Positions 10,704-62,141 of a stretch of DNA of 64,000 nucleotides are shown one piece after another. This stretch comes from an uncultured Gammaproteobacteria bacterium. Its GTDB lineage: Bacteria; Patescibacteriota; Patescibacteriia; Magasanikbacterales; GWA2-37-8. The first letter of the stretch is position 1, and each line of letters starts with the position of its first letter. The notes under the pieces were generated by a model. It ran no database searches and was not told where the DNA came from. It was given only the letters and a program-made list of their open reading frames with translations. The stretch covers positions 332,830-396,829 of the forward strand of contig CAZQUL010000001.1 of NCBI GenBank assembly GCA_964596525.1, written 5' to 3'. Made by a program: the position numbers and the translations under genes.

Positions 10704-10781
10704 AGAAGTATGTAGTCTAGACTATCTACCATGCCGGGTGTGAATTGGCAAGGGAATGGAAAAGCCTGGCGAGATAACATC

Positions 10782-10911
10782 GTCATTGCGAGCGGAGCGA
10801 AGCCCGTCCGCCATGGCAGCAAAGGTGCGCCGGGCGGGCAATCCCCTTGATACCAGGGTGAGTTCAAAATACAGAGGGATTGCTTCGCTTCGTACCTCAA
10901 CTCGCAACGAC
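10782..10911. repeat. MITE-like repeat copy 1 (module A)
   Basis: TIR GTCATTGCGAG...CTCGCAACGAC. Core AGCCCGTCCGCCATGGCAGCAAAGGTGCGCCGGGCGGGCAATCCC plus stem GCAATCCC/GGGATTGC. Shared with copies at 17500, 43536 and, inverted, 37809. Confidence 0.8.
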
Positions 10912-10919
10912 AGTGAATT

Positions 10920-25632: not shown

Positions 25633-25706
25633 GGGCCAATAGCTCAGCTGGCTAGAGCGCTTCCATGGCATGGAAGAGGTCCGGGGTTCAAATCCCCGTT
25701 GGTCCA
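25633..25706 (+). tRNA. tRNA-Ala (anticodon GGC)
   Basis: Manual fold with the Ala identity pair G3:U70. Anticodon loop ATGGCAT. T-arm CGGGG-TTCAAAT-CCCCG. Confidence 0.9.
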
Positions 25707-25719
25707 CAAAATCAAAAAA

Positions 25720-25739
25720 CAGCCGCGCGGCTGTTTTTT
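25720..25739 (+). terminator. rho-independent terminator after tRNA-Ala
   Basis: CAGCCGC/GCGGCTG palindrome followed by TTTTTTG. Confidence 0.75.
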
Positions 25740-25886
25740 GATTTCCATAAGAAAATTCGGAAAGTGTGGTTTTATCTTGACCATTTCCGCGGTCTCTGTT
25801 ACATTTCGCTGTTCCGTGAGGTGCGCTGCAACTGGCTACGGATGTTCGTTGACCTGCTCCTTGAAGGGCAGAAGGAGAGAGAAAAA

Positions 25887-27620
25887 ATGAAGAAATTGAC
25901 CTGGAAGGACTATATTCTCTTTGTTGTCGCTGCGTGTATGGCCGGAGCGTTGTATTACCACGAGGCAGTGGTGAAGCACGATCCGTATGCCAACTTCGTC
26001 GAAGTGGCGCAGGATATCCGCGACCACAAGGTGAAAGAGATTGTTGTGCAGAGTGAAAAGCTGGAGGTGAAGTTCACAACTGGTGCGAAACGCCTGTACC
26101 CCAAGGAAGGTGCTGAGAGTTTTGAGCATCTGGCGGAGCGTTACAAGATTTCGCCGGAGATGCTCGCTGGCATCAAGATCGTGAACGAATCTTACAAAGG
26201 TTTTTTCGATCTGCTGACGTTCCTTATTACGCTCGCCATCCCAATTGGGGCATTCTTCTTCTTGAGAAGGACAGGGGTCAGAGGGATGAGGATTGAGCAG
26301 GTGATGAAATGCAACGTCACCTTTGCCGATGTGGCCGGACTTGCGCCGGCTAAGGCCGAGCTCACCGACATTGCGGCGTGCCTCGAGCGTAAGGACGATT
26401 GCGCCCGCTACGATATTCGGCTGCCGCGCGGTATCTTGTTTACCGGCGAGCCGGGTACGGGCAAGACCCTTCTGGCCCGAGCACTCGCCGGCGAGACGAA
26501 AGCGGCGTTTTTCACCGTCAGTGGGTCGCAGTTCGTGGATACATTCGTCGGTTCGGGTGCGCGCAATGTGCGCAACCTGTTTGATGCGGCGCGCGCTGCG
26601 GTGGTCAAGACCAAGCACCCGGCGATCATCTTCATCGATGAGATCGACGCTGTGGGTGTGAAAAGGACAGATCATCCGCTAGGAAATGACCAGCGCGACC
26701 AGACGCTCAACGAGCTCCTCGTCGCGATGGATGGTCTTGTCTCCGACAACGCCATCGTCGTCATCGCGGCCACCAACCGGCCCGACATGCTCGACGGGGC
26801 GCTCCTGCGTCCGGGCCGCTTCGATCGTAAGATCCATCTGGAACTACCGGACCGTGCGGCTCGCCGTGCCATCCTCGAGATCCACGTGCGCGAGAAGCCG
26901 CTCGCGTCGAGCGTCGCGCTCGATACCATCGCCGCTCGTACCGCCGGATTTTCGGGCGCCCAGCTCGAGAGTCTGGTGAACGAAGCGGCCATCCTCATGA
27001 TCCGTGCCGGAGAGATCCACATCACGGGCCGCATCATGGATGAAGCGATGGACAAGGTGCTCGTGGGTGTGGGCAACGCGCGGGTCGTAACGGGAGAAGA
27101 GCGGGAACGCGTCGCTTATCACGAAGCCGGACATGCGATCGCGGCGCATTTCTTGCCGCACTGCAAAGGCCTGCGCCGCGTTTCCATCGTGCCACGCGGC
27201 ATGACCGGCGGTTTCACCATGGTGACACCGGAGCATGAGAACTCGCTGCGTACCCGTGCCGAGCTTGAGGAGCAGCTCGTCATGATCATGGCTGGCTACG
27301 CTGCCGAGGTGAGTAAGTATGGCGAGAGCGGCCTTTCTACGGGCTGCACTAACGACCTCGAGCGTGCGGATTCCCTGGTGCGGTACATGGTGACGAGGTG
27401 GGGAATGGTGCCGGAGGTGGGCTTCTTCACCCCGGCGCAGGGCGTGTCCGAGGAGCGGCGAGAGCGGGTGGACGAAGCGGTGAAAGACCTGCTCACGCAG
27501 GCGCGAAATCGCGCCGCTGAACTGCTTGCTACACATAGCGCGCTTTGGATGCGTCTCGCCCATGAGCTTATGAACAAGGAGACGCTCAACGAGGCAGAAC
27601 TCACCGTGCTCCTTGGTTAG
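25887..27620 (+). CDS. ftsH: ATP-dependent zinc metalloprotease FtsH (paralogue 1)
   Basis: AAGGAG Shine-Dalgarno. Two TM helices flanking a periplasmic domain. Walker A GEPGTGKT, Walker [38 protein letters not shown] zinc site. Confidence 0.9.
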   Translation: MKKLTWKDYILFVVAACMAGALYYHEAVVKHDPYANFVEVAQDIRDHKVKEIVVQSEKLEVKFTTGAKRLYPKEGAESFEHLAERYKISPEMLAGIKIVNESYKGFFDLLTFLITLAIPIGAFFFLRRTGVRGMRIEQVMKCNVTFADVAGLAPAKAELTDIAACLERKDDCARYDIRLPRGILFTGEPGTGKTLLARALAGETKAAFFTVSGSQFVDTFVGSGARNVRNLFDAARAAVVKTKHPAIIFIDEIDAVGVKRTDHPLGNDQRDQTLNELLVAMDGLVSDNAIVVIAATNRPDMLDGALLRPGRFDRKIHLELPDRAARRAILEIHVREKPLASSVALDTIAARTAGFSGAQLESLVNEAAILMIRAGEIHITGRIMDEAMDKVLVGVGNARVVTGEERERVAYHEAGHAIAAHFLPHCKGLRRVSIVPRGMTGGFTMVTPEHENSLRTRAELEEQLVMIMAGYAAEVSKYGESGLSTGCTNDLERADSLVRYMVTRWGMVPEVGFFTPAQGVSEERRERVDEAVKDLLTQARNRAAELLATHSALWMRLAHELMNKETLNEAELTVLLG

Positions 27621-27668: not shown

Positions 27669-27787
27669 TAATTGCGTTCGATCCGACCATTACGCGTTTC
27701 TTTAAAGCTTGACTTTTTTGCCTTCTTAAGGTTTAGTATCCTGTTCCCTCCGCGGTGGAGGGCGGTTCGTTAACAAAGGAGGCTGTC

Positions 27788-29656
27788 GTGAAGGTGCCCA
27801 AGTTCAAGTTCCGGATGGATTATCTGATTCTGCTCTTGTTTGTGATCTCGCTCGGCCGTAGCACGTATGTCGAGATGTGGAAGTTACCACATAACTCATA
27901 TAACAATTTCAGCGAGCTGGCGGATGACATCCGCGCTGGAAAGGTCCTCAAGATAACGGTAGAGCCGAACCGCCTGACGGTCCAGAAGTCCGGCGGCGTA
28001 ACGAGGTTCCTCAGCAAGGATAACGATACGTTTGAAACGCTCTCCATGCGCTACAAGCTCGAGACATCGCATCTTGATCGGGTTACGATTGCTCACAAGG
28101 GCGAACGTGGCTGCGCGGCGTCGACGAGCGACGTGTTGTTTTCGCCGGGAGCGCTGCTCGCTCTCTACTTCTTATTCGGCCGTCGGTCTCCGTCGTCCGA
28201 GGAGAATAAGGAAGAGAAAGACGATGCTGGTGACGATAAGGACAAGAAAGAGAAGCCGCGCGGGTTGGAAGGGTTCTTCCAGCGCGTCAAGGAAGCTCTC
28301 AATCCCAAAGGAATCGAGATCGAAGAGGCGACCGAGTGTGCGACGACCTTCGCCGATGTGGCCGGTCTCGAGCCGGCCAAGGAGGAGCTCCGCGACATCA
28401 TCGTCTATATCAAGAATCCGGAGTCGTTCGAGCGCCACAACATCCGGCTGCCGCGTGGCATTCTCTTCACCGGCGATCCGGGGACGGGCAAGACGCTCCT
28501 CGCCCGTGCACTCGCCGGCGAGCTCAAGGCATCGTTTTTTACCACCAGCGGCTCGCAGTTCGTAGACGTGTTCGGCGGATTGGGAGCGCGCAACGTGCGT
28601 GATCTGTTCGCCCGGGCGCGGCAGGCCGTGGAACAGAAGAAACATCCGGCTGTTATCTTCATCGACGAGATCGATGCGGTCGGCGGCGCGCGTAGCGACA
28701 ATCCGTCGTTCCATCCGGAACGGGATCAGACGCTCAACCAGCTGCTCGTCGAGATGGATGGACTCAAGAAACAGGCGGGCATCATCGTGATCGCGGCCAC
28801 CAACCGGCCGGATATGCTCGACCCGGCACTCTTGCGACCTGGCCGTTTCGATCGCAAGATTCATCTCGAGCTCCCTGACCGGGCGGCGCGGTTCGATATC
28901 CTAACGATCCACGCCCGACAGAAGCCGCTCGCCCCAGACGTTTCGCTCCTCGACATCGCCGCTCGTACGGCTGGCGTGTCCGGCGCGCAGCTCGAGAGCC
29001 TGATGAACGAAGCCGGAATCCTCATGCTGCGCCAAAACGAGACGGTGATCACGAACGAGATGATCGCCGAAGCTACGGACAAGGTGCTCATGGGCGTCGG
29101 CAACGGTCGGATCCTCACGCCCGAAGAGCGCGAGCGTACGGCCTGCCACGAAGCCGGTCACACCCTCGTCGGGTATGCACTTGATCACTGCGATCCGGTG
29201 CGCCGCGTTTCCATCGTAGCGCGCGGCGAGGCCGGCGGCTTCACCATGGTCGCGCCCGAGCATGATGATCCGTCGCATACCAAGGAGCAGCTCGAGGATA
29301 TCCTGGCGATGACCATGGCCGGCTATGCCGCCGAGGTCAGTAAGTATGGCGAGAGCGGTCTCTCGACCGGCGCCGCAAGCGATCTCGAGCGGGCCGAGAA
29401 GCTGGCGTGGTACATGGTGACCACCTGGGGAATGAAGCGCGAGGTCAGTTTTTTCACCGATATCGAGCGCGCTTCCGAAGCGCGCATTCAGATGATCGAG
29501 AAGACGGTGAACGAACTACTCACCACTGCCTACGGTCGGGCGTTCGAGCTCCTCAAGAAGCACGAGCTCAAGTGGAAGAACGTGGCCGATGCTCTCATTG
29601 AGAAGGAAGTGCTGGATGAGGATGATCTCGAGCGGATGCTCGATCAGCTTGATTAG
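27788..29656 (+). CDS. ftsH: ATP-dependent zinc metalloprotease FtsH (paralogue 2) with Lys/Asp/Glu-rich linker
   Basis: AGGAGG then GTG 27788; the ATG at 27755 is an alternative start. Walker [15 protein letters not shown]. Insertion [24 protein letters not shown] after TM2. Confidence 0.9.
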
Positions 29657-42304: not shown

Positions 42305-42374
42305 AAGGGGGTCTCGCGTGCCTGCGAGATTGCCTTCACAACTGTACGAGCAGAACGTACCAAAGGAGTTCCCC

Positions 42375-43421
42375 ATGAAGCGTTTCCTGTCCAGCATCTC
42401 CGCCGCGCTCCTCCTGTGCTCCACCGTCTCCCTCTTCGGCTGCGACGAGGGCGAGGTCGTCGGCTCCGCCGGTCCGGCGGGCCAGGCTGGCCCCAAGGGC
42501 GACAAGGGAGACACCGGCGCCATGGGTGCCCCGGGCGCCGATGGCATGATGGGCACCATGGGCCCGGCCGGCACCAACGGCACCGGCGACGTCGTCGTCA
42601 CCGGGACCCTCGCGCCGACCCAGGGCTGGTCCTTCATGACCTTCCGCATGGGCGGCGCCTTCATGAACCGCGTCGTGTTCGCGGATGACTACGCCTACCC
42701 GCCCGAGAGCTTCGCTCTGCCCGGCCTGCCCGTCGCCTCCAGCCTGCGCCTCGAGACCGGCCCGTCGCTCGTCGACCCGGGCAACGCCGCGCAGCTCCTG
42801 GGTGGCAAGGCCTACGCCGGCTCCGCAGGCCAGAACTACACCCGCGTCGGCGACATCATGAGCGTCAAGTACGTCACCCGCGTCGACAGCGCCACGAGTG
42901 TCGCCGCGACCGGCCCCGGCTACCTCAACCTCTTCGTCTCGCCGGGCACCTCGGATCTCAAGACCGCCGCGGCGCGCAAGGCCTGGTTCGAGGCGGAGCC
43001 CACGGAGTACGATCTGATCGTCTTCGATCCGGCCTACTTCCCCAAGCCCGGCTACGCCCCCCAGAACGGCCGCTGGCAGGCCTGGATGCTCGACGACAAC
43101 GCGCCCGTGCGCTGCCGCCGGAGCAAGCTCGTCATCGACGGGACCGGCACGCGCTGCATCAAGGACGCGGAGGTGAAGTGGGGCGTGCTCAAGCAGTACA
43201 ACCCCGATGCCTTCCTCGTGCCGCCCCACTGCTCCGAGTTCGCGGCCGTCGCCCCGGCCATGTGCCCGGCCACCCCGCCGCAGCCCGGCCTGGTCTACGT
43301 CATCGGCTCGTCCACTGAGTCCGTGACCGCGCCCAACTGGAGCAACTTCAAGGTGAACCTCGGCGCCGTCGAGATCACCTACGAAGGGGACTACAAGCGG
43401 CGCTACCTGTTCGGCAAGTAG
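42375..43421 (+). CDS. lipoprotein with collagen-like Gly-X-Y triple-helix repeat
   Basis: AAAGGAG Shine-Dalgarno. Signal LLLCSTVSLFGC. 13 consecutive G-X-Y triplets GPAGQAGPKGDKGDTGAMGAPGADGMMGTMGPAGTNGTG. C-terminal roughly 250-aa globular domain. Confidence 0.75.
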   Translation: MKRFLSSISAALLLCSTVSLFGCDEGEVVGSAGPAGQAGPKGDKGDTGAMGAPGADGMMGTMGPAGTNGTGDVVVTGTLAPTQGWSFMTFRMGGAFMNRVVFADDYAYPPESFALPGLPVASSLRLETGPSLVDPGNAAQLLGGKAYAGSAGQNYTRVGDIMSVKYVTRVDSATSVAATGPGYLNLFVSPGTSDLKTAAARKAWFEAEPTEYDLIVFDPAYFPKPGYAPQNGRWQAWMLDDNAPVRCRRSKLVIDGTGTRCIKDAEVKWGVLKQYNPDAFLVPPHCSEFAAVAPAMCPATPPQPGLVYVIGSSTESVTAPNWSNFKVNLGAVEITYEGDYKRRYLFGK

Positions 43422-43535
43422 CGGCCTGACCGCGGCAGCGCCTGTGCCGCGTCCCGTGCCCATGCCTTGGATGTGAACCGCCCGGTTTCGAGCGCAAGCT
43501 TGGAACCGGGATTTTTTATTAAAAGTTTGTGTGGG

Positions 43536-50782: not shown

Positions 50783-52285
50783 ATGAGTACACGTACGCTA
50801 GTGGCTCGAATCCTTATCGCGCTCGGTGCAGTGGTTGGTGTCGCGGGTTTTTCTTCTGCTGTTGATGCGGCCGGGTGTTATTGCGTGGGAGAACAGAATC
50901 TTTGCATCACCGAAAATAACCAGTGCACCGAAAGTCCTTACGAGCGTTGTTTTAGTCAAACTGCAGGCGGGGAGCCGGTTACTAAAGCTGAAGACTGTGC
51001 TGATTTTAAGAAAAATGGTCTCAAGCAAACCTATCAGGCTAGCGGTTCTCCGGTGACAGTAGAGGCGCGATTCGATACCTGTACGTACAGCGTAAGCAAT
51101 GATTGTTCCGAAGCGCGGAAATCTGCCGACGATGCTGCTATTGCCGGAGAAGCTGATGCTGATGCGGAGAAGGAAAAAGAATTCGAAGACGAACAGGAAG
51201 AGGCTCGTGCCAATCAGGCCCAACAGCTTCAGATTCGCAAACCGGTGCTTAACATCCTCATCCCCAATCTCACGTTTAGTGATATTCGTACTAGTACGAT
51301 TGATGATGAAGGGTATGTGCAGATTCCGTGGATCGGCGAATATGTGGCTGCGCTCTACAGTTTGGCGGTATCCATCGCGAGCATTTTGGCTGTTATCCTT
51401 GTCATTCGCGAGGGTGTGCGCATCATTATGTCGGGCGGTGGAGACGGAAAAATCGAGGGTTACCGCAATATCGGCCGCATTGTTGCGGGTGTTATTCTGG
51501 CCTGGAGCTCGTATGTTATCCTCTACAACGTCAATGCTAATTTGGTGAGTTTCAAACCGCTCCAGGTGCGCTACGCTGAAGGCGGTCCGATCGTCGTTGA
51601 TGCGGCGGCTGAAGATGCGGTGGATAGCGTGGGCGGACGTAATTATACGGGCAGCGTCTTTGTTCCGCCTGGAAACGGTGAAAGCAATGTGCCGTACTAC
51701 GCGCAGTGGGAAGGTCCATGGGCCAAGAAAAAACCCGGTGATCCGGAATGGCCCCTTAGCCAGGCGCAGCAAGGGCGTACCGATTGTACGACGATTCAGC
51801 AGCGTGGCTGCGGTCCGACAAGTTTGGCGATGGTGATGAACTATTACGGTGAAAAAGTGACGCCGCTTGATACGGGCCGCTGGGGGTTGGGTTGTACTGG
51901 TGCTTGGCAACCATGGGATACGTATAAGACGTTCTCGGATAAATGGCCGAGCCTTAAGATGGAAATTCTCAAAGTGCGCAAGTCCGATAAAGTAGCGATC
52001 CGTCAGAAGGTGCTGCAGTATCTTTCGCAGGGTAAACCACTCGTTTATAACTGCGCTCCGTGCGCCGGCCTTAACCGCGAGAACAACCCGGGCCGCACCT
52101 ACCGCGGTCACTATATGGTACTTACCCATATCATTACCCAGGGCGATGTGCTTGGCATGGACCCGAGCCAAGTATACGTCGGCGTTAACGATCCGGGTGC
52201 TAATGAAAAAAATCGCATCCGCAAAATGTCGCTTAAAAATATCATTGATAACTACGTTATTGCCGTCTACGTGGATAAGCGCTAG
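50783..52285 (+). CDS. secreted/membrane protein: Cys-rich N-domain, two-TM hairpin, C-terminal C39-like (papain-fold) peptidase domain
   Basis: Signal peptide. N-terminal CYCVGEQNLCITENNQC... Two TM helices at about residues 190-250. C-terminal GCGPTSLAMVMNYYG with a His in GHYMVLTH. Confidence 0.55.
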   Translation: MSTRTLVARILIALGAVVGVAGFSSAVDAAGCYCVGEQNLCITENNQCTESPYERCFSQTAGGEPVTKAEDCADFKKNGLKQTYQASGSPVTVEARFDTCTYSVSNDCSEARKSADDAAIAGEADADAEKEKEFEDEQEEARANQAQQLQIRKPVLNILIPNLTFSDIRTSTIDDEGYVQIPWIGEYVAALYSLAVSIASILAVILVIREGVRIIMSGGGDGKIEGYRNIGRIVAGVILAWSSYVILYNVNANLVSFKPLQVRYAEGGPIVVDAAAEDAVDSVGGRNYTGSVFVPPGNGESNVPYYAQWEGPWAKKKPGDPEWPLSQAQQGRTDCTTIQQRGCGPTSLAMVMNYYGEKVTPLDTGRWGLGCTGAWQPWDTYKTFSDKWPSLKMEILKVRKSDKVAIRQKVLQYLSQGKPLVYNCAPCAGLNRENNPGRTYRGHYMVLTHIITQGDVLGMDPSQVYVGVNDPGANEKNRIRKMSLKNIIDNYVIAVYVDKR

Positions 52286-52310
52286 AGTAGGATGAGCACG
52301 CTCATAACGT

Positions 52311-53654
52311 ATGGCAAACAAAAAAATAACTCCTCTTTTTGCCTGTACCAAATGCGGCGCCCAGTTCCAGAAATGGACTGGGCGCTGTTTGGAATGCGGC
52401 GCCTGGGGAACAGTAGAAGAAAGCGCGGCAGCATCTGGCACCGAACCGGTGGTGGCGCCCGGCGTAAAGAGTCTTGCAGTTACGCCGCTCTCTGCGGTAA
52501 CGAAAAGCGTAGTGGCGCGCCGTAGTACAAATGTGTCCGAACTGGACCGTGTGCTTGGGGGAGGTATCGTGCCGGGAAGCTTGATTCTTCTGGGGGGAAG
52601 TCCCGGTATTGGCAAATCCACTCTATCGCTCCAAATCGCGTTGTCTATCCCGGGGACGCTCTATGTATCGGGCGAGGAATCGGTAGAACAAGTGAAACTC
52701 CGTTCTGAACGCCTGGCATCCATACCCTCCGATGTGCGGCTCCTTGCGGCTACCGCTCTTGATCCGATTGTTGCAACCATCATCGAACACAAACCGCCGC
52801 TTGTTATTCTTGACTCCATTCAGACGGTAGCTACTGCCGACGTTGAAGGCGAAGCGGGGAGTGTAAGCCAGATCCGCGCTTCGACGGTGAAACTTCTCGA
52901 AGTTGCCAAAACACATCATATCCCGATCATCATCATCGGCCATGTTACCAAAGACGGCAGCGTGGCTGGTCCCAAAACACTCGAACACCTGGTTGATACC
53001 GTACTTTATTTCGAGGGCGACCGGCATCATGCGTATCGACTGCTGCGCGCTACCAAAAATCGCTTCGGCGCTACCGACGAAGTGGGTATGTTTGAAATGA
53101 ATGAAAATGGTCTGGCCGAAGTAAAAAATCCCTCTGCCGCCCTTCTTACTGAGCGTAACTTAGCGACCGCTGGAAGCGTATTAACGTGCCTTATGGAGGG
53201 TACACGACCGATGCTTGTCGAGGTGCAGGCGCTCGTGACGCGTACGGCATTCGGGTATCCGGTACGCAAAGCGAGCGGTTTTGACCTTAATCGCCTGCAC
53301 GTGCTTCTTGCTGTGCTCCAAAAACGCGCCGGACTGCCGCTTGAGCAATACGACGTACACGTTAATATCGTCGGTGGCCTTGAAGCCGATGAGCCGGCGG
53401 CGGATTTGGCGGTGGCGCTTGCGGTGGCGAGCAGTTATAAGGATAAAGTACTGGGTAATGATTTGGCAGCGTTCGGGGAAATCGGTTTGGGCGGCGAAAT
53501 CCGGCCTGTAGCGCAAACCGACAAACGGCTTAAAGAATGCGAACATCTGGGGCTCAAGCGCGTGCTTTTACCCGGCGCGAAGCTAGAACTCAAGAAAGGT
53601 CCGCTCCAGCTCGTCACGATCGGGAATTTAAACGAGATTATCAAGCATACATAA
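52311..53654 (+). CDS. radA: DNA repair protein RadA (Sms)
   Basis: N-terminal C4 zinc finger CTKCGAQF..CLECGAW. RecA-like GSPGIGKST. KNRFG motif. Lon-like C-terminal domain. Confidence 0.95.
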   Translation: MANKKITPLFACTKCGAQFQKWTGRCLECGAWGTVEESAAASGTEPVVAPGVKSLAVTPLSAVTKSVVARRSTNVSELDRVLGGGIVPGSLILLGGSPGIGKSTLSLQIALSIPGTLYVSGEESVEQVKLRSERLASIPSDVRLLAATALDPIVATIIEHKPPLVILDSIQTVATADVEGEAGSVSQIRASTVKLLEVAKTHHIPIIIIGHVTKDGSVAGPKTLEHLVDTVLYFEGDRHHAYRLLRATKNRFGATDEVGMFEMNENGLAEVKNPSAALLTERNLATAGSVLTCLMEGTRPMLVEVQALVTRTAFGYPVRKASGFDLNRLHVLLAVLQKRAGLPLEQYDVHVNIVGGLEADEPAADLAVALAVASSYKDKVLGNDLAAFGEIGLGGEIRPVAQTDKRLKECEHLGLKRVLLPGAKLELKKGPLQLVTIGNLNEIIKHT

Positions 53655-54684: not shown

Positions 54685-54864
54685 GGTTCCCTCGATGAAA
54701 GACCCGTGTAAAAGTATAAACTAATTTTTCCGCCTTCGCCACTCAGTTGTACACTCGTTTCCGTGAAAACTATGGATATGGAATGCACGGTGGTGTATAA
54801 TGGCGCCAGCAGGTTCCTGTTGCGCTTTCAACAATCTAGGGAAGAAGGGGGGTTTATTTTTTGT

Positions 54865-55917
54865 ATGCAGATTGATCGTTTGCTCCGTCAACGTAACTAC
54901 GCGGCATGGCAGGTCCGCGCCGACGATTTCCCCGTATCGGGAACTGAAGAAGAGCGGTTATGTTTTTTACTTCGTTACGCGCTGCTCGCTCCTTCAAGTC
55001 ATAACAGTCAGCCGTGGCGGTTGAGCGTAGCTCCGCCTTTTATTACGTTCAAAATTGCGTCTGAACGCGCGCTCCCGGTTGTGGATCCACTCAACCGGTT
55101 GAGCACTATCGCTGTCGCGGCAGCAGCGGAGAATTGCCAGTTGGCGGCCGACTATTTCGGCTATGCGGCAACCGAAGAGCAGGTTTCATCTCATGAATGG
55201 CGTTTGGCCTGCACGTCTCGGGGGCCGATTATTTCCAATCCCGACCATCTTTTTCATAGCATTACTAAACGTCACTGCGAGCGCGGGCCCTACCGCATAC
55301 AGCGTCTTGCGGAGGATTTAAAGAAAGAAATGGCAGCATTGGTTACATCCGGAGTAAAAATTACGTTCGTTGAAGATGCTTCTGAGCGTTTGTGCGTTAC
55401 CCGTATCGTACTTGATGCTCGCGACGAACTTATGGACGAGCGTTCGTTTCGCGATGAATTGGCAGCGTACAAACGTCATAACCTGACGCGTGACGGGGTA
55501 GGCATGCCCGGATTTACGATGGGTTTTTCTACGGCGCTTTCGTTTATCACGCCGTTCGTTATCCGGCGGCGCAACGTGGCGCGTATGACGAGACAGAAAG
55601 ATGAAGACCTGATGAATGTGGCAACACCGGCCTTTGTAGTGCTTAGCACGTCCGAGAACACACCGGCCGCCTGGTGGGAGGTTGGGAAGGTGCTTGAGCG
55701 TGCGCTCTTGGCTGCGACGCGTAGAGGTTATGCGGCTAATATTATGGCTTCGCCCATCGATCGCGATGAGTGGGCAGTCAAGCTCGGAGAAGTAATAGGA
55801 CTTACCAGCAATGAGCGGCCACAGATGTTTTTCCGTCTCGGCCAACCCGTGGCTGCCACCCACTACCCGAGCCCTCGCCTGGCACTTCCCGATGTGTGTG
55901 AAAACGCGCGCGTATGA
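54865..55917 (+). CDS. nitroreductase-family protein (large two-lobed type)
   Basis: SSHNSQPWR nitroreductase motif. About 350 aa. Start uncertain: 54763 is an alternative, and neither has a strong Shine-Dalgarno. The stop overlaps the next start (ATGA). Confidence 0.7.
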   Translation: MQIDRLLRQRNYAAWQVRADDFPVSGTEEERLCFLLRYALLAPSSHNSQPWRLSVAPPFITFKIASERALPVVDPLNRLSTIAVAAAAENCQLAADYFGYAATEEQVSSHEWRLACTSRGPIISNPDHLFHSITKRHCERGPYRIQRLAEDLKKEMAALVTSGVKITFVEDASERLCVTRIVLDARDELMDERSFRDELAAYKRHNLTRDGVGMPGFTMGFSTALSFITPFVIRRRNVARMTRQKDEDLMNVATPAFVVLSTSENTPAAWWEVGKVLERALLAATRRGYAANIMASPIDRDEWAVKLGEVIGLTSNERPQMFFRLGQPVAATHYPSPRLALPDVCENARV

Positions 55918-56957
55918 CCGCTCATTTTTGGCAGATGCTTCCGGAGTATGACGGACATGCTCGCGTCATACCTGTCGTAGATGACCATCAGACATGTATC
56001 GGTTTTATCGCTATCTATAACGAAAGGCCTGGTTTTCCATCGCTTGGCGCGACGCGCTGGTGGACCTATTCTTCGCAAGAAGAAGCGTGTGCCGATGCAC
56101 TCCGGCTTGCCAAACTCATGGCGTATAAAGCCGCAGGTGCCGAATTACCTTATGGTGGCGCCAAAGGCGTTATTTTTGCTTCGTCTCAGGGGGATAGTCG
56201 GGCTGCCGTATTGAAAGCTTATGCCCGGGCAGTCGAAGAATTGTCCGGCGTTTTTGTGACCGGCACCGACGTGGGGCTTAGCGACGATGATCTGGAAATC
56301 ATGAAAACCGTTACGCGTCATATCATCGGCACGGGTGTGCCAAGCGGGTATTACACGGCGCTTGGCGTGATGTTCGCCATGCAAGAAACGCTTCAGAGTC
56401 TGTATCAGGATCCAGCGCTTACGGGCCGTACGATCGTTATCCAGGGTTTAGGTAAAACCGGTTTGGAACTGGCGCGCCTCGCGCGTTCGGCGGGGGCGCG
56501 CGTGGTGGTGACGGATATCAATCCGTTGGTCGTTGCTCGGGCACGCGAACTTATGCCTGAGCTGGATTTGTGTCAGCCGGGCGAAGAATATACTATTGCG
56601 TGCGATGTTTTTGCGCCCTGCGGCGTGAGCGGAGCTATTACACCTGCGAACGTGGATCATATTCCGTTTCGCTCCATTGTCGGCGCGGCGAATAATCAAC
56701 TCACCGATCCACGGCTTGCACAAACGTTGCATCGTCGCGGTATACGTTATATTCCCGATTATATCGTCAATGCCGGCGGGCTTTTGAGCGTTGTCGATGA
56801 GCTACAGTTCGGTTCATACGACGCGACGCGTGTTGCTGCAAGTGTCGATACACTCCGCGCGCGCGTCCGTTCATTGCTCGAAGAAAGCGCCCGGCGCCAA
56901 GTGCCGCCCTTAACCGTAGCCGACGAACGCGTGCGTGAGCGTTTGTCACTCTTATAA
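55914..56957 (+). CDS. Glu/Leu/Phe/Val-type amino-acid dehydrogenase family protein
   Basis: Catalytic-Lys motif GGAKGV. Rossmann IQGLGKTGLELARLARSAGARVVVTDI. Confidence 0.75.
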   Translation: MTAHFWQMLPEYDGHARVIPVVDDHQTCIGFIAIYNERPGFPSLGATRWWTYSSQEEACADALRLAKLMAYKAAGAELPYGGAKGVIFASSQGDSRAAVLKAYARAVEELSGVFVTGTDVGLSDDDLEIMKTVTRHIIGTGVPSGYYTALGVMFAMQETLQSLYQDPALTGRTIVIQGLGKTGLELARLARSAGARVVVTDINPLVVARARELMPELDLCQPGEEYTIACDVFAPCGVSGAITPANVDHIPFRSIVGAANNQLTDPRLAQTLHRRGIRYIPDYIVNAGGLLSVVDELQFGSYDATRVAASVDTLRARVRSLLEESARRQVPPLTVADERVRERLSLL

Positions 56958-56963
56958 TCATCT

Positions 56964-58475
56964 ATGTCGCCAGCTCGTTCTTCTACAACCGCTTTCATTA
57001 GCGCGCTCAAAACCAGACCCGAAGCGTGGTGGCAGCATCGGGGTGCAGTGCGTACGTTGCGTTTGTTTCATGCCATGGCACGGCGTGTACCAGCGTACCG
57101 CGATTTTCTGGTTAAACATCGTATTGATTCGGATAAGATAACTGCACCAGCAGATCTTAAACACTTACCGCCGACGGACAAAAATTCGTATTTGCGCGCA
57201 TACGAACTCAAAGATTTGGCCTGGGATGGAATTATTGCCGAGCGCAACCAAGTGGTTGCGGCAACTTCAGGTTCAAGCGGCGAGCCGTTTTATTTTCCCC
57301 GTTCGCACGTGCAAGACGCACAATTTGCTTTTACGCTCGATGTGCTGCTGCGCGATTATTGGGCTGTCGAAAAACGTTCCACGCTTTTCGTCAATTGTTT
57401 TGCGCTCGGCATCTGGATCGGCGGGATGTACATGTATCAGGCGCTCAAGTATGTGCTCGACCGTAATCAGTACCGCCTTACGGTTGTCAATCCGGGCGCG
57501 TATAAAGAAGAAGCGATTAAGGCCATTAAACGTCTTGGAAAGTACTACGATCAAGTAATTATCGGCGGGTATGCACCGCTCGTCAAAGATCTGCTCGATG
57601 ATGCGGTGCGTCACGATGTGGATTGGCGTGCGTTCAAACCGCGGTTTTTCTTTGCTGCCGAAGGGTTTAGTGAGACGTTCCGCGATTACATTCTCGGCAA
57701 AGTCGGACTCGATAATCCCTACGTCAATACGTTCAACCACTACGGTACGGCGGATATGGGCACGATGGCGCACGAAACGCCATTCTCGATTTTTATGCGG
57801 CGACAGGCGTTTGCCGAACCAGCCATCGGAGCGCGGCTCTTGCCGGATGTAACCAAACAGCCGACGATCTGTCAGTACTTACCGGAATTATTTTATTTCG
57901 AAGAGGTGGACGGCGGCTTGTTCTGCTCAAGCGGGAGCGGGTTGCCGCTCATACGCTATGACCTCAAAGACCGCGGCGGCGTATTTACCTGGGGCGATGC
58001 CGAACGTGCTTTTGCGGCTGAGGGCAAAAACATGGGATGGCTTACGGAACAAGCGGGGCTGCGTTTTTATCGTTGGAACGTACCGTTTGTGTACGTGTAC
58101 GAACGTGCTGATCTAACCGTGAGCATTTACAGCGTCAATATCTATCCCGAATCCGTACGCCGCGCACTCGAGAAACCCGATTTTCAGGAGTTTTTAACCA
58201 CTAAGTTTTCACTCACGGTCGGCTATGACAACGAGCAGAATCAGGTGCTCAGATTATATGTGGAACTTAAAAACGGCATTGTTGCACCGCCTACGCTCGC
58301 TGATCGGATCCAAACAAGTGTCGTGCGCCAACTCAACGAAGAAAATTCCGAATGGCGCGATTTTTATGCCGACGAATCCATTCGTCATAAGATCCTGCCG
58401 GTTGTCGAGCTCTGTACGTACGAAGATCCGACCTATTTCAAATCCGGCCGCAAACAGCGCTGGGTACTTCGCTAA
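56964..58475 (+). CDS. PaaK-like adenylate-forming enzyme (phenylacetate-CoA ligase / F390-synthetase family)
   Basis: ATSGSSGEPFYFP P-loop-like AMP-binding motif. Size and layout match the PaaK family. Confidence 0.7.
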   Translation: MSPARSSTTAFISALKTRPEAWWQHRGAVRTLRLFHAMARRVPAYRDFLVKHRIDSDKITAPADLKHLPPTDKNSYLRAYELKDLAWDGIIAERNQVVAATSGSSGEPFYFPRSHVQDAQFAFTLDVLLRDYWAVEKRSTLFVNCFALGIWIGGMYMYQALKYVLDRNQYRLTVVNPGAYKEEAIKAIKRLGKYYDQVIIGGYAPLVKDLLDDAVRHDVDWRAFKPRFFFAAEGFSETFRDYILGKVGLDNPYVNTFNHYGTADMGTMAHETPFSIFMRRQAFAEPAIGARLLPDVTKQPTICQYLPELFYFEEVDGGLFCSSGSGLPLIRYDLKDRGGVFTWGDAERAFAAEGKNMGWLTEQAGLRFYRWNVPFVYVYERADLTVSIYSVNIYPESVRRALEKPDFQEFLTTKFSLTVGYDNEQNQVLRLYVELKNGIVAPPTLADRIQTSVVRQLNEENSEWRDFYADESIRHKILPVVELCTYEDPTYFKSGRKQRWVLR

Positions 58476-58483
58476 TTTTTTGT

Positions 58484-59584
58484 ATGACCTTGTTGCCAAC
58501 TCCTCGCATTCTTTCCGAAGGAACATTTACCCTTGCCGACCTCGCGGCGTTCAAGCGCGAATTCAAGATCTGGCAGGAATATGATATATACCCGCTTCAG
58601 TTGGCGGAAGTATTTGAAATAACGCACCCCGAACTCCTCTACGCTCGTGACCGCGAAGAGCGAAAAAAAACGTTTATCAACGAAAAGCTTGCTAGAACCA
58701 AAGCCGGGCTCCTCGGCGGATGCTGGGTGTATTTTCCGGCCGACGGCCGTTTGGTGCACATGGTGGGTGAAGAAGATTATTACCGCCTGCGCACTAACCG
58801 TAACCGCAATCTAGTCACGTCCGTGGAGCAAGAAAAGCTGCGCCGTGCCCACATTGGACTCATCGGGTTGTCCGTTGGGAGTGGTGTAGCTACGACGTTG
58901 TCGTATTTGGGCATCGGGGCCACGTTTTCGGTAGCCGAGTTCGATACGCTCGAAACCACCAACCTCAATCGCATCCGCGCTCGCGTCGATCAGATTGGTG
59001 CGTCCAAGCTCACACTTTTAGCCGAACAGATCTACGCCGTCAATCCGTTCGCTCATATCCGTGCTTTTGATCAGGGTATTACGTCAGCAACGCTCGATGC
59101 TTTTACCGAGCCTGGAAAGTGTCCGGATGTTATTTTCGAGATCATCGATAGTTTTGAGATGAAAATCCATATCCGCAACCGCGCAAGATTGCGCCGTGTG
59201 CCGGTCATTATGGTTACCAATTTAGGCGACCGCGTACTTCTTGATGTAGAACGCTACGATGTTGACCTGCAAACGCCGTACTTTAATGGCCGAGCCGGTG
59301 ATGTGCCTGCTGCGATGATCGAAAATCCCGATGTCTCCACCGAGCTCAAGCATCAGTATGCTGTGGCTTTGGCTGGCAAGGAACACATACCCCACCGAGC
59401 TCTCGCTTCGGTCGATGAAATCGGCACAACCCTCGTTGGCCGACCGCAGCTTGCTTCTACAGTAACCGTTGCAACAGGCTTGTGTGGCTATCTGACGCGC
59501 CGTATTCTGCTCGGCGACACCACCCTCTCTGGCTCTTGGCTCATAAACTTTGATACACTATGTGAGACGGATCGTCGCCTATGA
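58484..59584 (+). CDS. ThiF/MoeB/E1-like family protein
   Basis: Rossmann IGLIGLSVGSGVATTLSYLGIGATFSVAEFDTLETTNLNR typical of E1-like adenylyltransferases. No rhodanese domain. Confidence 0.7.
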   Translation: MTLLPTPRILSEGTFTLADLAAFKREFKIWQEYDIYPLQLAEVFEITHPELLYARDREERKKTFINEKLARTKAGLLGGCWVYFPADGRLVHMVGEEDYYRLRTNRNRNLVTSVEQEKLRRAHIGLIGLSVGSGVATTLSYLGIGATFSVAEFDTLETTNLNRIRARVDQIGASKLTLLAEQIYAVNPFAHIRAFDQGITSATLDAFTEPGKCPDVIFEIIDSFEMKIHIRNRARLRRVPVIMVTNLGDRVLLDVERYDVDLQTPYFNGRAGDVPAAMIENPDVSTELKHQYAVALAGKEHIPHRALASVDEIGTTLVGRPQLASTVTVATGLCGYLTRRILLGDTTLSGSWLINFDTLCETDRRL

Positions 59585-60456
59585 CAACCGAAGGAGCGCT
59601 CTTAGCCACAATTAACGCCCCTTTAGCCGTGCGCCAACGCGTTTGCGGTAATTTTACCGTTCATTATTGCGTAGGCGGTAGCGGACCAACGCTTTTTTTC
59701 ATCCACGGCGCCAATATCGGGTGGGGGATGTGGTATACCATATTGCCAGAGCTTGCCAAGAAATACCGCGTTATAGCCATCGATTTGCCCGGCGCCGGGC
59801 GCTCCACCCGGCTCGATTATCAAACCCTCAACATTGAGCGCGACTTCATGGGGCCGTTGACCGAATTCTTCGCTGAAGAAATTGAGGGTCCGGTTACTAT
59901 TCTCGGCAGCTCCATCGGAGGGTACTTGGCGATTCGCTTGGCGGAGAAGTTTCCTGCCCGCGTAAAGGCGCTTGCGCTCTTTAATAGCGTTGGCTTTTCT
60001 TCGCGCCAGAGCGTGGCCGACCGATGCTTGAGCTGGTATCCGCTCGCCCGCCTCATTTCTAAAACCGTCCTTAATCCTCGTCTTTCGCGCTCGCGCATCG
60101 ATGCATTCATCCGTTCCACGTTTTTCAACAAAGAAACGCCGCTCGTCCCCGAATTTCTGGATTACTTTTTTGAAACCACCCTTACCTCGCACAATCTTCT
60201 GTTTATCAGCCGCATGCTGGCCTGCTCGGAAGAATTGGTCGTGACGGACACTGCCGCTCGACTCACCATTCCGACCCTTGTCGTCTGGGGCGAGCATGAT
60301 CGCATCATGCCACTCGAGCATCAACGTGCCGGACTCGGGCGTCTAAACCAATCCCGCCTCGTCGTGGTGCCGGGTGTCGGACATTTTCCGTCGCTTGAGA
60401 ATCCAGCGCGCGTACTTGAGGAAACACTGCCTTTTCTTGCCGCTCATAGCGTATGA
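59581..60456 (+). CDS. alpha/beta-hydrolase fold protein
   Basis: HGANIGWGMW oxyanion region. GSSIGG nucleophile elbow. ATGA overlap with the upstream gene. Confidence 0.8.
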   Translation: MTTEGALLATINAPLAVRQRVCGNFTVHYCVGGSGPTLFFIHGANIGWGMWYTILPELAKKYRVIAIDLPGAGRSTRLDYQTLNIERDFMGPLTEFFAEEIEGPVTILGSSIGGYLAIRLAEKFPARVKALALFNSVGFSSRQSVADRCLSWYPLARLISKTVLNPRLSRSRIDAFIRSTFFNKETPLVPEFLDYFFETTLTSHNLLFISRMLACSEELVVTDTAARLTIPTLVVWGEHDRIMPLEHQRAGLGRLNQSRLVVVPGVGHFPSLENPARVLEETLPFLAAHSV

Positions 60457-62141
60457 TGTTTATTCCGCCTCATCTATCGCTTGCTATTTTGGTTTTGGCC
60501 GTCATATCCATCGTGGCCTTGGCGCTTATCGTGATCCGCCAGAACATGCGAAGCGCTACGCACCGGATATTTTTTGCCTTGTCGCTCGTTACAGCATCAT
60601 GGCTGGTTTTGACGCACCTGTCGGCTCTGCCGGATTTTCTTACTTACTATCTTCTTACGGCACGCCTCACCATCTTTTGTGCCGTACCGCAGAGCGTGCT
60701 GTTTTTTTTGCTCGCGCATACCCTGCCGTCTGAAAATCTTGTGCTGTCGCACCATCGTTTCCGCCTTCTGATTGTCGCCACGATCGGCGTGATGTTTCTT
60801 ACGCTTACGCCGCTCGTATTTTCTTCGGCAGTAATTACTGGTGGCCGCGGCACGCTCGCCGTGGGGTTTGGTATGCCAGTTTTTGTCGCATTCGTCAGCA
60901 TCTTGAGCATCGCCGCGCTCGTTACGCTCATCAAAAAAATCCATCATAGCGCCGGCACCGTCCGTCGCCAGCTTGTTTTCATGATGACCGGTATTCTTCT
61001 TCTGCTTGGCCTCATCATTTCCACTATCATGATTCCGGTGATTTTTTTTCAATACGATGGCGGTATCAGCTTGGCACCTCTGTACGCGCTTATTTTCATT
61101 GCGCTTACGACAATCGCTATCTTGCGCTACCACTTGTTTGATATCAAACTCATTGCTACCGAAATTTTGGTCGCCATCATCGTTCTTACGCTTTTGTTTG
61201 AAGGTTTGAGAACCGAATCGCTTTTGTCGGCGGCCGTTAAATACTTGTTCTCCGGCCTCGTGCTCTGGCTTGGGTACTTACTCGTCAAAAGCGTCAAGAA
61301 AGAAATCGCGCAGCGCATCGAACTCGCCAACCTTAACACTACGCTTAAAGTTTCCAACGAGCAGCTCGCTACGGCTAATCTGCGGCTTAAAGAACTCGAT
61401 AATCAGAAAACCGAGTTTCTCTCCATCGCGTCGCATCAACTGCGCACACCGCTTTCCATCATCAACGGTTACATCGAACTCTTGGCCGACGGCGGTTATG
61501 GCAAGATGCCTACGCCTGCGCTTGGTGTGTTTGCAAATATCACCAACAATACCGATCATCTCATCCGCCTCGTTAACGAATTCCTCGATATCACCCATAT
61601 TGAGCAAGGGCGCGCCAAGTTTACGTTCGCCCCGGCTGACGTACGCGATATTGTCGATGAAGTAACGCGCGAGCTTGAATCGCAGCTTAAGAACAAGGAT
61701 CTCGAAATTGACTGGCGGCGGCCGGAGCGAGCAGTTATCGCTACGATCGACCGCGAAAAAATCCGCCATGTTATTTTTAATTTCGTCGACAACGCCATCA
61801 AGTACAGCGAGCACGGTGCCATCACTATTACGGTCAAAAGCGAAAAAGGCGGCGTGGCTGTGCGCGTCAAAGACCGCGGACTTGGTTTTGGTCCGGTTGA
61901 TCAGGCCAACTTTTTCCAGAAATTTTATCGCGGCAAGAACGTGGAAGGCGTGAACGTAACCGGCACTGGTCTTGGCCTTTTCGTGGCTAGCAAGTTCGTG
62001 GAAGGGCACCAGGGCAACATCTGGGCGGTAAGTCCAGGGCCGGGCCGGGGGAGTGAGTTTGGTTTTTGGGTGCCGCTCCAGCATGCGAGTGAAGAGGTCT
62101 TGGCCGAATCTTCAAAAGCAAACCAAAAAAAGAAAGCGTAA
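60453..62141 (+). CDS. sensor histidine kinase with 7-TM N-terminal sensor domain
   Basis: Seven hydrophobic helices. HisKA FLSIASHQLRTPL. HATPase_c with N, G1 and G2 boxes. ATGA overlap with the hydrolase gene. No response regulator in the window. Confidence 0.9.
   Translation: MMFIPPHLSLAILVLAVISIVALALIVIRQNMRSATHRIFFALSLVTASWLVLTHLSALPDFLTYYLLTARLTIFCAVPQSVLFFLLAHTLPSENLVLSHHRFRLLIVATIGVMFLTLTPLVFSSAVITGGRGTLAVGFGMPVFVAFVSILSIAALVTLIKKIHHSAGTVRRQLVFMMTGILLLLGLIISTIMIPVIFFQYDGGISLAPLYALIFIALTTIAILRYHLFDIKLIATEILVAIIVLTLLFEGLRTESLLSAAVKYLFSGLVLWLGYLLVKSVKKEIAQRIELANLNTTLKVSNEQLATANLRLKELDNQKTEFLSIASHQLRTPLSIINGYIELLADGGYGKMPTPALGVFANITNNTDHLIRLVNEFLDITHIEQGRAKFTFAPADVRDIVDEVTRELESQLKNKDLEIDWRRPERAVIATIDREKIRHVIFNFVDNAIKYSEHGAITITVKSEKGGVAVRVKDRGLGFGPVDQANFFQKFYRGKNVEGVNVTGTGLGLFVASKFVEGHQGNIWAVSPGPGRGSEFGFWVPLQHASEEVLAESSKANQKKKA

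Follow-up and report, generated by a model that had tools for sequence, protein, structure and literature searches.

Patescibacteria have tiny genomes and carry out very little biosynthesis. What, then, do five enzyme genes make that form a compact operon with a sensor histidine kinase gene in a member of the Magasanikbacterales? The operon lies in a stretch of 64,000 nucleotides, hereafter called the window (GenBank assembly GCA_964596525.1, contig CAZQUL010000001.1, positions 332,830 to 396,829, forward strand). In our judgement, there is about an even chance that it encodes a self-contained small-molecule pathway of the Patescibacteria around an oxazolone-synthetase pair, comprising ATP-dependent N-acyl amino acid synthesis, cyclodehydration, desaturation, and a dedicated sensor, with an oxazolone or dehydroamino-acid derivative as the product. 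All steps of this pathway are deduced from homology and gene linkage.

The list of open reading frames (ORFs) and a reading of each junction sequence revealed six ORFs on the plus strand, g1 to g6, which span positions 54865-62141 (Table 1). Stop and start codons overlap as ATGA at three junctions, namely g1/g2, g4/g5 (59581-59584), and g5/g6 (60453-60456). The TAA of g2 ends at 56957 and the ATG of g3 starts at 56964, leaving a gap of 6 nt, and 8 nt separate the g3 stop (58475) from the g4 ATG (58484). The first-pass annotation, made by a model from the letters of the sequence, had likewise described ORFs joined by ATGA overlaps or gaps of at most 8 nt. Its six domain calls all hold, five in profile searches and that of g3 in the predicted structure. 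It had also called the enzymes "fused in register" to the kinase; translational coupling by ATGA overlap is present, an in-frame protein fusion is not.

Table 1. Features of the operon and its upstream region, with positions in the window
Feature	Position	Strand	Assignment	Basis
g1	54865..55917	+	Acg-type flavin-dependent oxidase (FDO)	PF00881, NF047509
g2	55914..56957	+	NAD(P)-dependent hydrophobic amino-acid dehydrogenase, LeuDH/TrpDH-like	PF02812, PF00208
g3	56964..58475	+	PaaK-fold adenylate-forming (ANL) enzyme	AlphaFold model, Foldseek
g4	58484..59584	+	ThiF/E1-like, TrzS/Rv1355c type, putative ATP-dependent cyclodehydratase	PF00899, NF005901
g5	59581..60456	+	alpha/beta-fold serine hydrolase, accessory	PF00561, PF12697
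g6	60453..62141	+	sensor histidine kinase with N-terminal seven-transmembrane (7TM) region	HisKA_7TM + HisKA + HATPase_c (Pfam)
Promoter-like site	54773..54801	+	TGGATA-17-TATAAT	10/12 consensus matches; consensus match only

Recurrence of the gene block in Patescibacteria

A scan of one genome per GTDB species detected 235 loci, a lower bound because the scan needed exact peptide patterns, and 80 of these loci were fetched. The block recurs in the 80 fetched genomes with unrelated flanks. Thus, the gene arrangement is far beyond chance. The genes surrounding the block in the window (M19 dipeptidase, C39-like peptidase, RadA, RecG, DsbA-like, PD40) had no counterpart near it in the 80 related loci. 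The block behaves as an autonomous module, and the flanking genes are not part of the system. The first-pass annotation had made its case depend on a neighbourhood conserved in relatives, and this conservation is strong.

The labels of the loci cover Parcubacteria groups (Magasanik-, Doudna-, Lipton-, Lloyd-, Kaiser-, and Adlerbacteria, Paceibacterota), Microgenomates groups (Roizman-, Woese-, Gottesman-, and Woykebacteria), and Saccharimonadales. Records of many metagenome-assembled genomes (L005, L007, L021, L023, L027, L028, L031, L032, and others) are titled "uncultured Gammaproteobacteria bacterium" or "Polyangiaceae", and these names look unreliable. Two apparent occurrences outside the phylum were rejected. 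The locus labelled "Kapabacteria" (P0171) has the same neighbours as L001 (TyrRS, ArgRS, bactofilin, DAGK) and probably comes from a mislabelled bin. The archaeal locus (P0236, L090; CP070635.1, "Thermoplasmatales archaeon", 8564-11826) is likely a patescibacterial fragment that was scaffolded in. It comprises ThiF, FDO, the final 56 residues of a g3-like gene, and a truncated, kinase-less 7TM ORF running into a stretch of N, and has the appearance of a chimeric scaffold among the public records.

The composition of the block was counted in the 48 complete loci, that is, those with enough flanking sequence, by searching the six window proteins against all ORFs. The g3 protein was the search query and is hence present in every locus (48/48). 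A ThiF gene was found in all 48 as well, and a kinase of the 7TM type in 45, which makes the kinase a conserved part of the module rather than the downstream gene it had been taken for. The FDO is present in 37 of the 48 loci, the dehydrogenase in 33, and the hydrolase in about a third (17); all six genes occur together in 13.

When the flanking ORFs were clustered, a class I/II aminotransferase (PF00155, 213 bits) emerged that adjoins the block in 22 loci, mostly divergently oriented and just upstream. The dehydrogenase is missing from all 22. Among the 63 loci with enough upstream sequence, 40 have only the dehydrogenase, 20 only the aminotransferase, none has both, and three have neither (Fisher p 1.3e-13, a value that ignores phylogeny and so overstates independence). 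Judging by record titles, the aminotransferase type is apparently concentrated in Saccharimonadia-like genomes. This non-orthologous displacement of the dehydrogenase indicates that the interconversion of amino acid and 2-oxo acid is an integral step of the system.

Natural fusions join the same parts. The dehydrogenase is fused to the PaaK-like enzyme in L008, P0018, and P0257, the PaaK-like enzyme to ThiF in L044 and P0241 (in the order ThiF-PaaK in P0306), and all three form a single protein of 1242 aa in P0290. ThiF-FDO fusions, which have the architecture of TrzS and OxzB, occur in seven loci (L015, L023, L027, L032, L068, L076, L080). The hydrolase is fused to ThiF in L017 and L024 and to the FDO in six loci, and L017 also has a dehydrogenase-FDO fusion. 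These pairings fit the linear order dehydrogenase, ligase, cyclase, oxidase plus hydrolase. From the fusions, the co-occurrence counts, and the unshared flanks, we conclude that the five enzymes are one unit.

The g3 family itself belongs largely to this phylum. It has more than 1,000 homologues, nearly all named ones coming from Patescibacteria/CPR lineages, and those retrieved at E 1e-30 or better in an exhaustive HMMER scan fall into 482 clusters at 50% identity. Searches of plasmid collections revealed no pair of g3 and ThiF outside Patescibacteria; in Nonomuraea and Gemmatirosa, g3 homologues occur, but a ThiF does not accompany them. In Nonomuraea gerenzanensis (L087, 7699-13648), no ThiF gene neighbours the 35%-identical homologue, which comes directly after genes for a HisKA_3 kinase and a LuxR-type response regulator; nearby genes encode an RR-SpoIIE phosphatase and a hybrid kinase. 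The g3 family may therefore be linked to two-component signalling outside Patescibacteria, too. On plasmid 1 of Gemmatirosa kalamazoonensis (L088, 8685-11338), a weak nitroreductase-like ORF lies directly upstream of, and overlaps, a 29%-identical g3 homologue, which hints at a pairing of PaaK-like enzyme and FDO without ThiF.

Enzyme functions and the predicted pathway

By homology, g4 is a putative TrzS-type cyclodehydratase that adenylates a carboxylate at the expense of ATP, g1 a probable FMN oxidase of the FDO group, g3 a predicted adenylate-forming enzyme, and g5 a predicted serine hydrolase. The g4 protein matched the Rv1355c family NF005901 with 248 bits (E 1.6e-73) over profile positions 65-339, which correspond to the ThiF half; the whole-protein cutoff of 476 is out of reach for a half-length protein such as g4. 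The runner-up family scored 76 bits, and the ThiF/MoeB/TcdA models 45-68 bits. Over 270 aa, g4 is 40% identical to a protein on a Rhodococcus plasmid that PGAP annotates as Rv1355c family, and this match covers the segment C-terminal to the Rossmann core. The alignment to the TrzS-family protein starts at g4 residue 81, inside an N-terminal alpha/beta domain of ~95 aa, and this domain thus seems to be shared with TrzS. The AlphaFold (AF2) model of g4 (pLDDT 87.5) has the E1 fold.

The residues expected of such a cyclase are in place. Asp D222 (IIDSFE) aligns with the Asp of ECDSFD in the Rhodococcus homologue and with that of AIDS in TcdA. Together with G128, S130, and G132 of the GxGxxG loop and N160, N162, and R163 of the NLNR motif, it is invariant in 25 homologues. 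D222 corresponds to TrzS D217 by motif, not by direct alignment to the Mycobacterium tuberculosis or M. smegmatis sequence. The D217A variant of TrzS loses cyclase activity (PMC12856293). A related stand-alone ThiF of 390 aa is encoded on a plasmid of Streptomyces sp. NBC_01426 (L085, 6959-8733); it aligns over 98% of g4, including the N-terminal domain, its gene overlaps a GNAT-family gene, no FDO is nearby, and the two genes may constitute an oxazolone-type pair without desaturase.

The g1 protein matched the nitroreductase family PF00881 with 40 bits and the Acg family FMN-binding oxidoreductase model NF047509 with 187 bits (cutoff 199). Its only full-length relative in the PDB is the Acg nitroreductase 2YMV, to which it aligns weakly. 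The 54 cluster homologues compared share the APSxHNxQPW motif and the arginine of KRHxxR. The C-terminal half of the Rv1355c-family model gave 51 bits, and the FDO half of a TrzS homologue is 38% identical to g1 over a short alignment of 56 aa. Thus, g1 scores higher on the Acg-family model, which is built around FDO-B proteins, than on the Rv1355c FDO half; TrzS, OxzB, and TyzC belong to the FDO-A subclusters A4, A8, and A23. TyzC is likewise described as a monomeric Acg-like FDO (PMC10404671). We predict that g1 is a C-alpha/C-beta desaturase.

A ThiF-like cyclase together with a flavin oxidase of the nitroreductase superfamily is the published form of an oxazolone synthetase, as in OxzB (bioRxiv 10.1101/2020.06.11.147165), TyzB/TyzC (PMC10404671), and TrzS (PMC12856293). 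Tyrazolones are made with TyzB/TyzC in M. tuberculosis (PMC10404671) and with OxzB in Pseudoalteromonas rubra (bioRxiv 10.1101/2020.06.11.147165). TrzS is Rv1355c, and TrzAS (Rv1356c/Rv1355c) makes N-acyl tryptazolone in Mycobacterium and Rhodococcus (PMC12856293). The Rv1355c-family match of g4, its D222 assigned by motif, and the Acg-like FDO type of g1 argue that g4 and g1 are a split pair of the oxazolone-synthetase kind. The cyclase/oxidase core is therefore of a known kind, although the gene combination had been annotated as having no described relative.

In the known oxazolone systems, a GNAT/AHL-synthase-like acyltransferase makes the N-acyl amino acid from acyl-CoA or acyl-ACP (PMC10404671; bioRxiv 10.1101/2020.06.11.147165). 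None of the six operon proteins contains an acyltransferase domain according to Pfam and NCBIfam, and the clustered flanking ORFs of the 80 related loci include no conserved family of N-acyl amino acid synthases (OxzA/TyzA/TrzA/NasY-like); response regulators and aminotransferases are the additional families identified there as recurrent. We propose that g3 stands in place of the GNAT-type N-acyltransferase. The g3 protein had no Pfam hit, including AMP-binding, and scored 21 bits (E 1e-4) on the PaaK equivalog TIGR02155, whose cutoff is 646. Its AF2 model (pLDDT 87), however, retrieved PaaK1 (2Y27) in Foldseek at E 5e-23 with TM scores of 0.67/0.77; for PaaK1 and BT_0428, TM scores ranged from 0.67 to 0.80. 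Other structural neighbours are 2-hydroxyisobutyryl-CoA ligase (HCL), ClxA, and the amide synthetase McbA. Invariant in the family are the TSGSSGEP loop, YGT.D, YDLKD, ERxD, and the C-terminal K497, which we take to be the core catalytic motifs of ANL enzymes. Because these residues are kept and the structural neighbours include the CoA-independent ClxA and McbA, g3 is best read as a ligase.

With phenylacetate-CoA ligase PaaK, g3 has the fold and the residues read as ANL motifs in common, but the sequence match at equivalog level failed, g3 is ~75 residues longer, and its 482 clusters constitute a family of their own. With the CoA-independent PaaK/ANL ligases (ClxA of closoxazole-type pathways, NatL2, McbA, GH3 amido synthetases), it shares the fold and the residues read as adenylation motifs at 13-17% identity; these stand-alone enzymes are precedents for amide or ester formation without CoA. 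Patescibacteria largely lack fatty-acid synthesis and often CoA synthesis. An ATP-dependent ligase instead of an acyl-CoA-dependent transferase would therefore suit such organisms.

The two remaining enzymes retain their catalytic residues. The g2 protein is an ELFV dehydrogenase that scored 214 bits on the ScyB tryptophan dehydrogenase model and is closest to leucine dehydrogenase 6ACF (207 bits) and tryptophan dehydrogenase 5B37 (186 bits); the catalytic K84 (GGAKG), K72, and the Asp of GTDVG are conserved. For g5, the nearest named models are of the enol-lactonase, C-C hydrolase, and BioH types, and the triad S111 (GSSIGG), D240, and H268 is conserved.

Taken together, the enzymes suggest the following pathway. 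First, g2, or the aminotransferase in other lineages, would interconvert a hydrophobic or aromatic amino acid and its 2-oxo acid and so supply one building block. Second, g3 would activate a carboxylic acid with ATP and couple it to the amino acid, yielding an N-acyl amino acid; in view of the dehydrogenase-PaaK fusions, the acid could be the 2-oxo acid made by g2. Third, g4 would adenylate the carboxylate of the amino acid, and the amide oxygen would close the ring to a 5(4H)-oxazolone. Fourth, g1 would desaturate the C-alpha/C-beta bond. Fifth, g5, where present, would open the activated oxazolone or transfer it. The kinase g6 most likely senses the product or its precursor and signals via single-domain response regulators. 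The first-pass annotation had proposed a compact pathway for an amino-acid-derived small molecule, a modified peptide, or a thiocarboxylate; the data agree with a compact, self-contained small-molecule module with an oxazolone-type core and not with the thiocarboxylate.

How does this module relate to the named oxazolone systems? It resembles TrzAS in the family signature of the ThiF-like cyclase, the 40% identity to a family protein, the adenylation Asp, and the Acg-like flavin oxidase partner. ThiF and FDO are fused in TrzS and likewise in some Patescibacteria, whereas in the window they are separate and three genes apart, and the g1 FDO is distant from the TrzS FDO half. TrzA-type acyltransferase has no equivalent here, and the PaaK-fold ligase, dehydrogenase/aminotransferase, hydrolase, and 7TM kinase have none there. 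Both are linked to signalling genes, which in M. tuberculosis are cyclic-di-GMP genes (PMC12856293), beside the Rhodococcus plasmid copy a GGDEF gene, and here a kinase. In Rhodococcus qingshengii (plasmid locus L086, 2696-6944), this GGDEF-domain gene lies ~1 kb upstream of the Rv1355c-family gene, echoing the cyclic-di-GMP neighbours of trzAS (PMC12856293).

TyzACB and OxzAB follow the same three-step logic, in which an N-acyl aromatic amino acid undergoes ATP-dependent cyclisation and flavin-dependent desaturation, and in Tyz the ThiF and FDO proteins are separate, as in the window. Their acyl group, however, comes via a GNAT/AHL-synthase-like enzyme, for which the adenylate-forming g3 is the sole candidate here. 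The N-acyl dehydrotyrosine clusters of Planctomycetota and Pseudomonadota (NasY + ThiF + nitroreductase; PMC12479983) are similarly tight operons with an enzyme that makes an N-acyl amino acid, and their product may be a ring-opened dehydroamino acid. NasY, though, makes N-acyl amino acids as an acyltransferase-type synthase, and its clusters lack the dehydrogenase, the PaaK-like enzyme, and the kinase (PMC12479983). N-acyl tyrosine producers are listed in three phyla only, Pseudomonadota, Actinomycetota, and Planctomycetota (PMC12479983). The core of the Patescibacteria cluster works like an oxazolone synthetase, but the adjacent N-acyltransferase is missing, and the cluster should not simply be called Tyz, Trz, or Oxz.

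Other classes of ThiF- or nitroreductase-containing systems did not fit. No YcaO or SagB-type model was among the Pfam and NCBIfam matches of the six proteins (the individual proteins checked for YcaO were those of the operon), and the SagB/TOMM (LAP; SagBCD, McbBCD) lead of the first-pass annotation is not supported. Activation of a sulfur carrier is equally unsupported. On ThiF/MoeB models, g4 reached 30-68 bits, far under the cutoffs of 152-376, and no ThiS/MoaD-like carrier and no conserved GG-ended carrier was found. That annotation had itself stated that the layout was not that of a canonical TOMM or ThiS/MoaD system and that neither carrier nor precursor was visible; both statements stand, as the small-ORF check found no conserved small ORF by the cluster. 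Only two GG-ended ORFs occur in the window: one lies antisense within a Clp ATPase gene, and the other, which is not conserved, covers the start of g1 out of frame. In the related loci, GG-ended ORFs are about as frequent as expected by chance. An anti-phage defence system of the E1/E2 type was also rejected: PADLOC gave Rossmann-level matches of at most 36 bits for g4 and no match for g1, g2, g3, and g5.

The sensor kinase and competing explanations

All kinases adjacent to the cluster align with the 7TM sensor region of g6 (residues ~10-250), even in cases of differing cytoplasmic parts, and other kinases in the same loci do not have a 7TM region of the g6 type. This sensor is kept with the cluster across Parcubacteria, Microgenomates, and Saccharimonadia labels. 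A search with the 7TM sensor alone gave 4 matches, with a word index that performs poorly on transmembrane segments. In 39 loci, a receiver-only response regulator (PF00072, median 131 aa, no output domain) is encoded just after the kinase or divergently upstream. Some kinases are ~710-775 aa long (L015, L023, L025-L027, L029-L032, L045, L046) and carry ~200 extra residues between the 7TM sensor and HisKA; this insert, found in Saccharimonadia- and Microgenomates-labelled loci, might be a PAS or GAF domain.

Because the sensor domain is conserved with the enzymes and the associated regulators are non-transcriptional, we infer that the kinase is a functional partner of the enzymes and not a generic operon regulator. 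Autoinducer synthase/kinase pairs are characterised by the same kind of conserved linkage, in which biosynthetic genes accompany a polytopic sensor kinase (here in 45 of 48 complete loci). In LuxM-LuxN, CqsA-CqsS, and AgrBD-AgrC, genes for the synthesis of a small amphiphile adjoin a polytopic-membrane kinase without extracytoplasmic domain, as is the case here. They have no homology to the cluster enzymes or to the sensor domain, however, and ligand sensing by g6 is putative. The Patescibacteria might possess a phylum-wide, self-contained form of chemical signalling, in which an oxazolone-type or dehydroamino-acid-type molecule made with the ligase is sensed by the dedicated 7TM kinase of the operon and the signal is passed to single-domain regulators that control behaviour, e.g., pili or host attachment, rather than transcription. 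We regard this scenario as possible but not probable. The authors of the TrzS study suspect a signalling role for oxazolones and state that their physiological role is unresolved (PMC12856293).

Several observations weigh against the oxazolone pathway with a dedicated sensor. Its main chemistry and its product are predictions from sequence. The operon lacks the acyltransferase by which the known oxazolone clusters are defined, and its role was given to g3 by inference only. With 187 bits on the Acg-family model versus 51 bits on the TrzS FDO half, the substrate class of g1 is uncertain. Desaturation by FDOs is O2-dependent in the known systems, and many Patescibacteria live in anoxic habitats. 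No FDO was found on the same strand within the search range in 11 of the 48 complete loci, at least four of which have one on the opposite strand or further away; desaturation may be dispensable in some lineages. The Foldseek alignments of g4 are longer to the peptide-modifying enzymes PaaA and MccB than to ThiF, and these alignments and the N-terminal domain could point to a peptide substrate for g4, which is not our preferred interpretation. Finally, the 64-kb window yielded no receiver domain of a response regulator, and the adjacency of the kinase could reflect regulation of the operon instead of sensing of its product.

The last point leads to the rival that survives best, although we still consider it unlikely: the enzymes would make the small molecule, but the kinase would not be its receptor and would do no more than control the operon, or some unrelated process, on an external cue such as amino acids or host contact. 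At the extreme, the kinase would be a mere syntenic neighbour. Two-component genes often sit beside the operons they control, the actinomycete g3 homologue in Nonomuraea follows a kinase and a LuxR-type regulator, and the missing response regulator of the window would also be compatible with this explanation. Yet the kinase comes after the enzymes in 45 of the 48 complete loci, whereas the flanks of the window recur in 0 of 80 related loci, and the 7TM sensor is conserved with the cluster across the three lineage labels. The associated regulators lack DNA-binding output domains, which speaks against simple transcriptional control, and g5 and the kinase of the window are coupled in translation.

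A second alternative concerns the chemistry. With the first steps unchanged, the oxazolone could be only an activated intermediate that g5 opens to an N-acyl dehydroamino acid, which would either be the final compound, like the stieleriacines and thalassotalic acids, or be cleaved to a primary amide and a 2-oxo acid. More speculatively, g2 or the aminotransferase would then re-aminate the 2-oxo acid, so that the amino acid is recycled as a nitrogen carrier in a carboxylate-to-amide cycle. This scheme gives a role to every enzyme, including the interchangeable dehydrogenase and aminotransferase, and fits the dehydrogenase-PaaK fusions as well as the fusions that put the hydrolase right after ThiF or the FDO. 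The equilibrium of LeuDH-type enzymes favours reductive amination. In addition, planctomycete and proteobacterial clusters of ThiF and nitroreductase give N-acyl dehydrotyrosines, with no oxazolone detected (PMC12479983). On the other hand, just 17 of 48 complete loci have the hydrolase, and the scheme is purely inferential and leaves the kinase unexplained. We know of no enamide-cleaving activity in the hydrolase family of g5. On balance, such a cycle appears distinctly unlikely.

We think it very unlikely that the substrate of g4 is the C-terminus of a ribosomal peptide or a protein whose gene lies elsewhere, adenylated in a RiPP- or ubiquitin-like modification with the other enzymes as tailoring enzymes. 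All characterised ThiF-like enzymes but one do act on peptides, proteins, or tRNA (PMC12596934). Structural alignments of the g4 model to PaaA and MccB, enzymes with N-terminal peptide-binding domains, moreover extend over 330-360 columns, and g4 has its own N-terminal alpha/beta domain of about 95 aa. The closest characterised relative of g4, however, is the small-molecule enzyme TrzS, with which this domain is seemingly shared. The operon gaps of at most 8 nt leave no room for a precursor gene, a protease or transporter of the RiPP type is not present, and no small ORF family is conserved beside the cluster except antisense artefacts. The sole GG-ended small ORF near the cluster (54800-55024, +; 74 aa, Cys-rich and odd in composition) was rejected as a carrier or precursor, since it runs out of frame over g1 and has no homologue in the 80 loci even at E 10.

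A housekeeping fermentation of amino acids, with deamination by g2, g3 as an acyl-CoA ligase for energy or scavenging, and ThiF and nitroreductase as unrelated neighbours, is disfavoured and extremely unlikely: LeuDH-like and PaaK-like enzymes do serve amino-acid and aryl-acid catabolism in other bacteria, and BT_0428, the structural neighbour of g3, was deposited as a putative acyl-CoA ligase, but the cluster has no 2-oxoacid oxidoreductase or decarboxylase, g3 stays at 21 bits on the PaaK equivalog, the dehydrogenase-PaaK-ThiF and ThiF-FDO fusions tie the parts together, and the block recurs as a unit, without the flanks it has in the window.

Surroundings of the operon and biological meaning

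Upstream, the longest ORF of g1 begins at GTG 54763. The ATG at 54865, the start given in the first-pass annotation, is the likelier one, because the promoter-like site (Table 1) and the purine run GGAAGAAGGGGGG, which precedes this ATG, fall within the GTG extension. The promoter-like site lies in the 180-nt divergent intergenic region between the M19 dipeptidase gene and g1, and promoter-like sites across the region were not more numerous than in shuffled sequences. Within the operon, neither internal promoters nor terminators exceeded the shuffled expectation. Downstream, 19 nt separate the stop codons of g6 (which ends at 62141) and the convergent RecG gene. The GC content of the operon is unremarkable compared to the 64-kb window.

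Of the Rfam families, only tRNA is represented in the window (1-64000), by three genes (Val-CAC, Arg-GCG, Ala-GGC); rRNA genes are absent. The housekeeping genes of the window are in keeping with a patescibacterial chromosome. Tandem FtsH-type genes (AAA + Peptidase_M41) are located at 25665-27620 and 27755-29656 (+), the second in the GC-richest part of that stretch (~0.58-0.61). Long ORFs of 607 and 375 aa run antisense to other ORFs, the first at 50798-52621 (-) opposite the C39-like peptidase gene (50783-52285, +) and the second at 42336-43463 (-) opposite 42318-43421 (+), in the GC-richest 2 kb of the window (0.62).

In the literature searched, we found no description of the ligase-based assembly, the dehydrogenase/aminotransferase step, the hydrolase, the fixed 7TM kinase, or the phylum-wide distribution in Patescibacteria. 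The g3 family, with its 482 clusters, has no characterised member and would extend the class of CoA-independent ligases. If the predicted pathway is true, N-acyl amino acids would be reached by a new route, on which an ATP-dependent PaaK-fold ligase replaces the acyl-CoA-dependent acyltransferase. The pathways to oxazolones and N-acyl dehydroamino acids were discovered only recently. An oxazolone-type system that is tied to a kinase across a whole phylum is a direct, testable handle on the role of oxazolones. If the signalling scenario also holds, the cluster would represent the first autoinducer-receptor pair described in Patescibacteria and the first physiological role for bacterial oxazolones. 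A five-enzyme module that is kept in hundreds of species, sometimes as two or three fusion proteins, likely matters for the lifestyle of the Patescibacteria.

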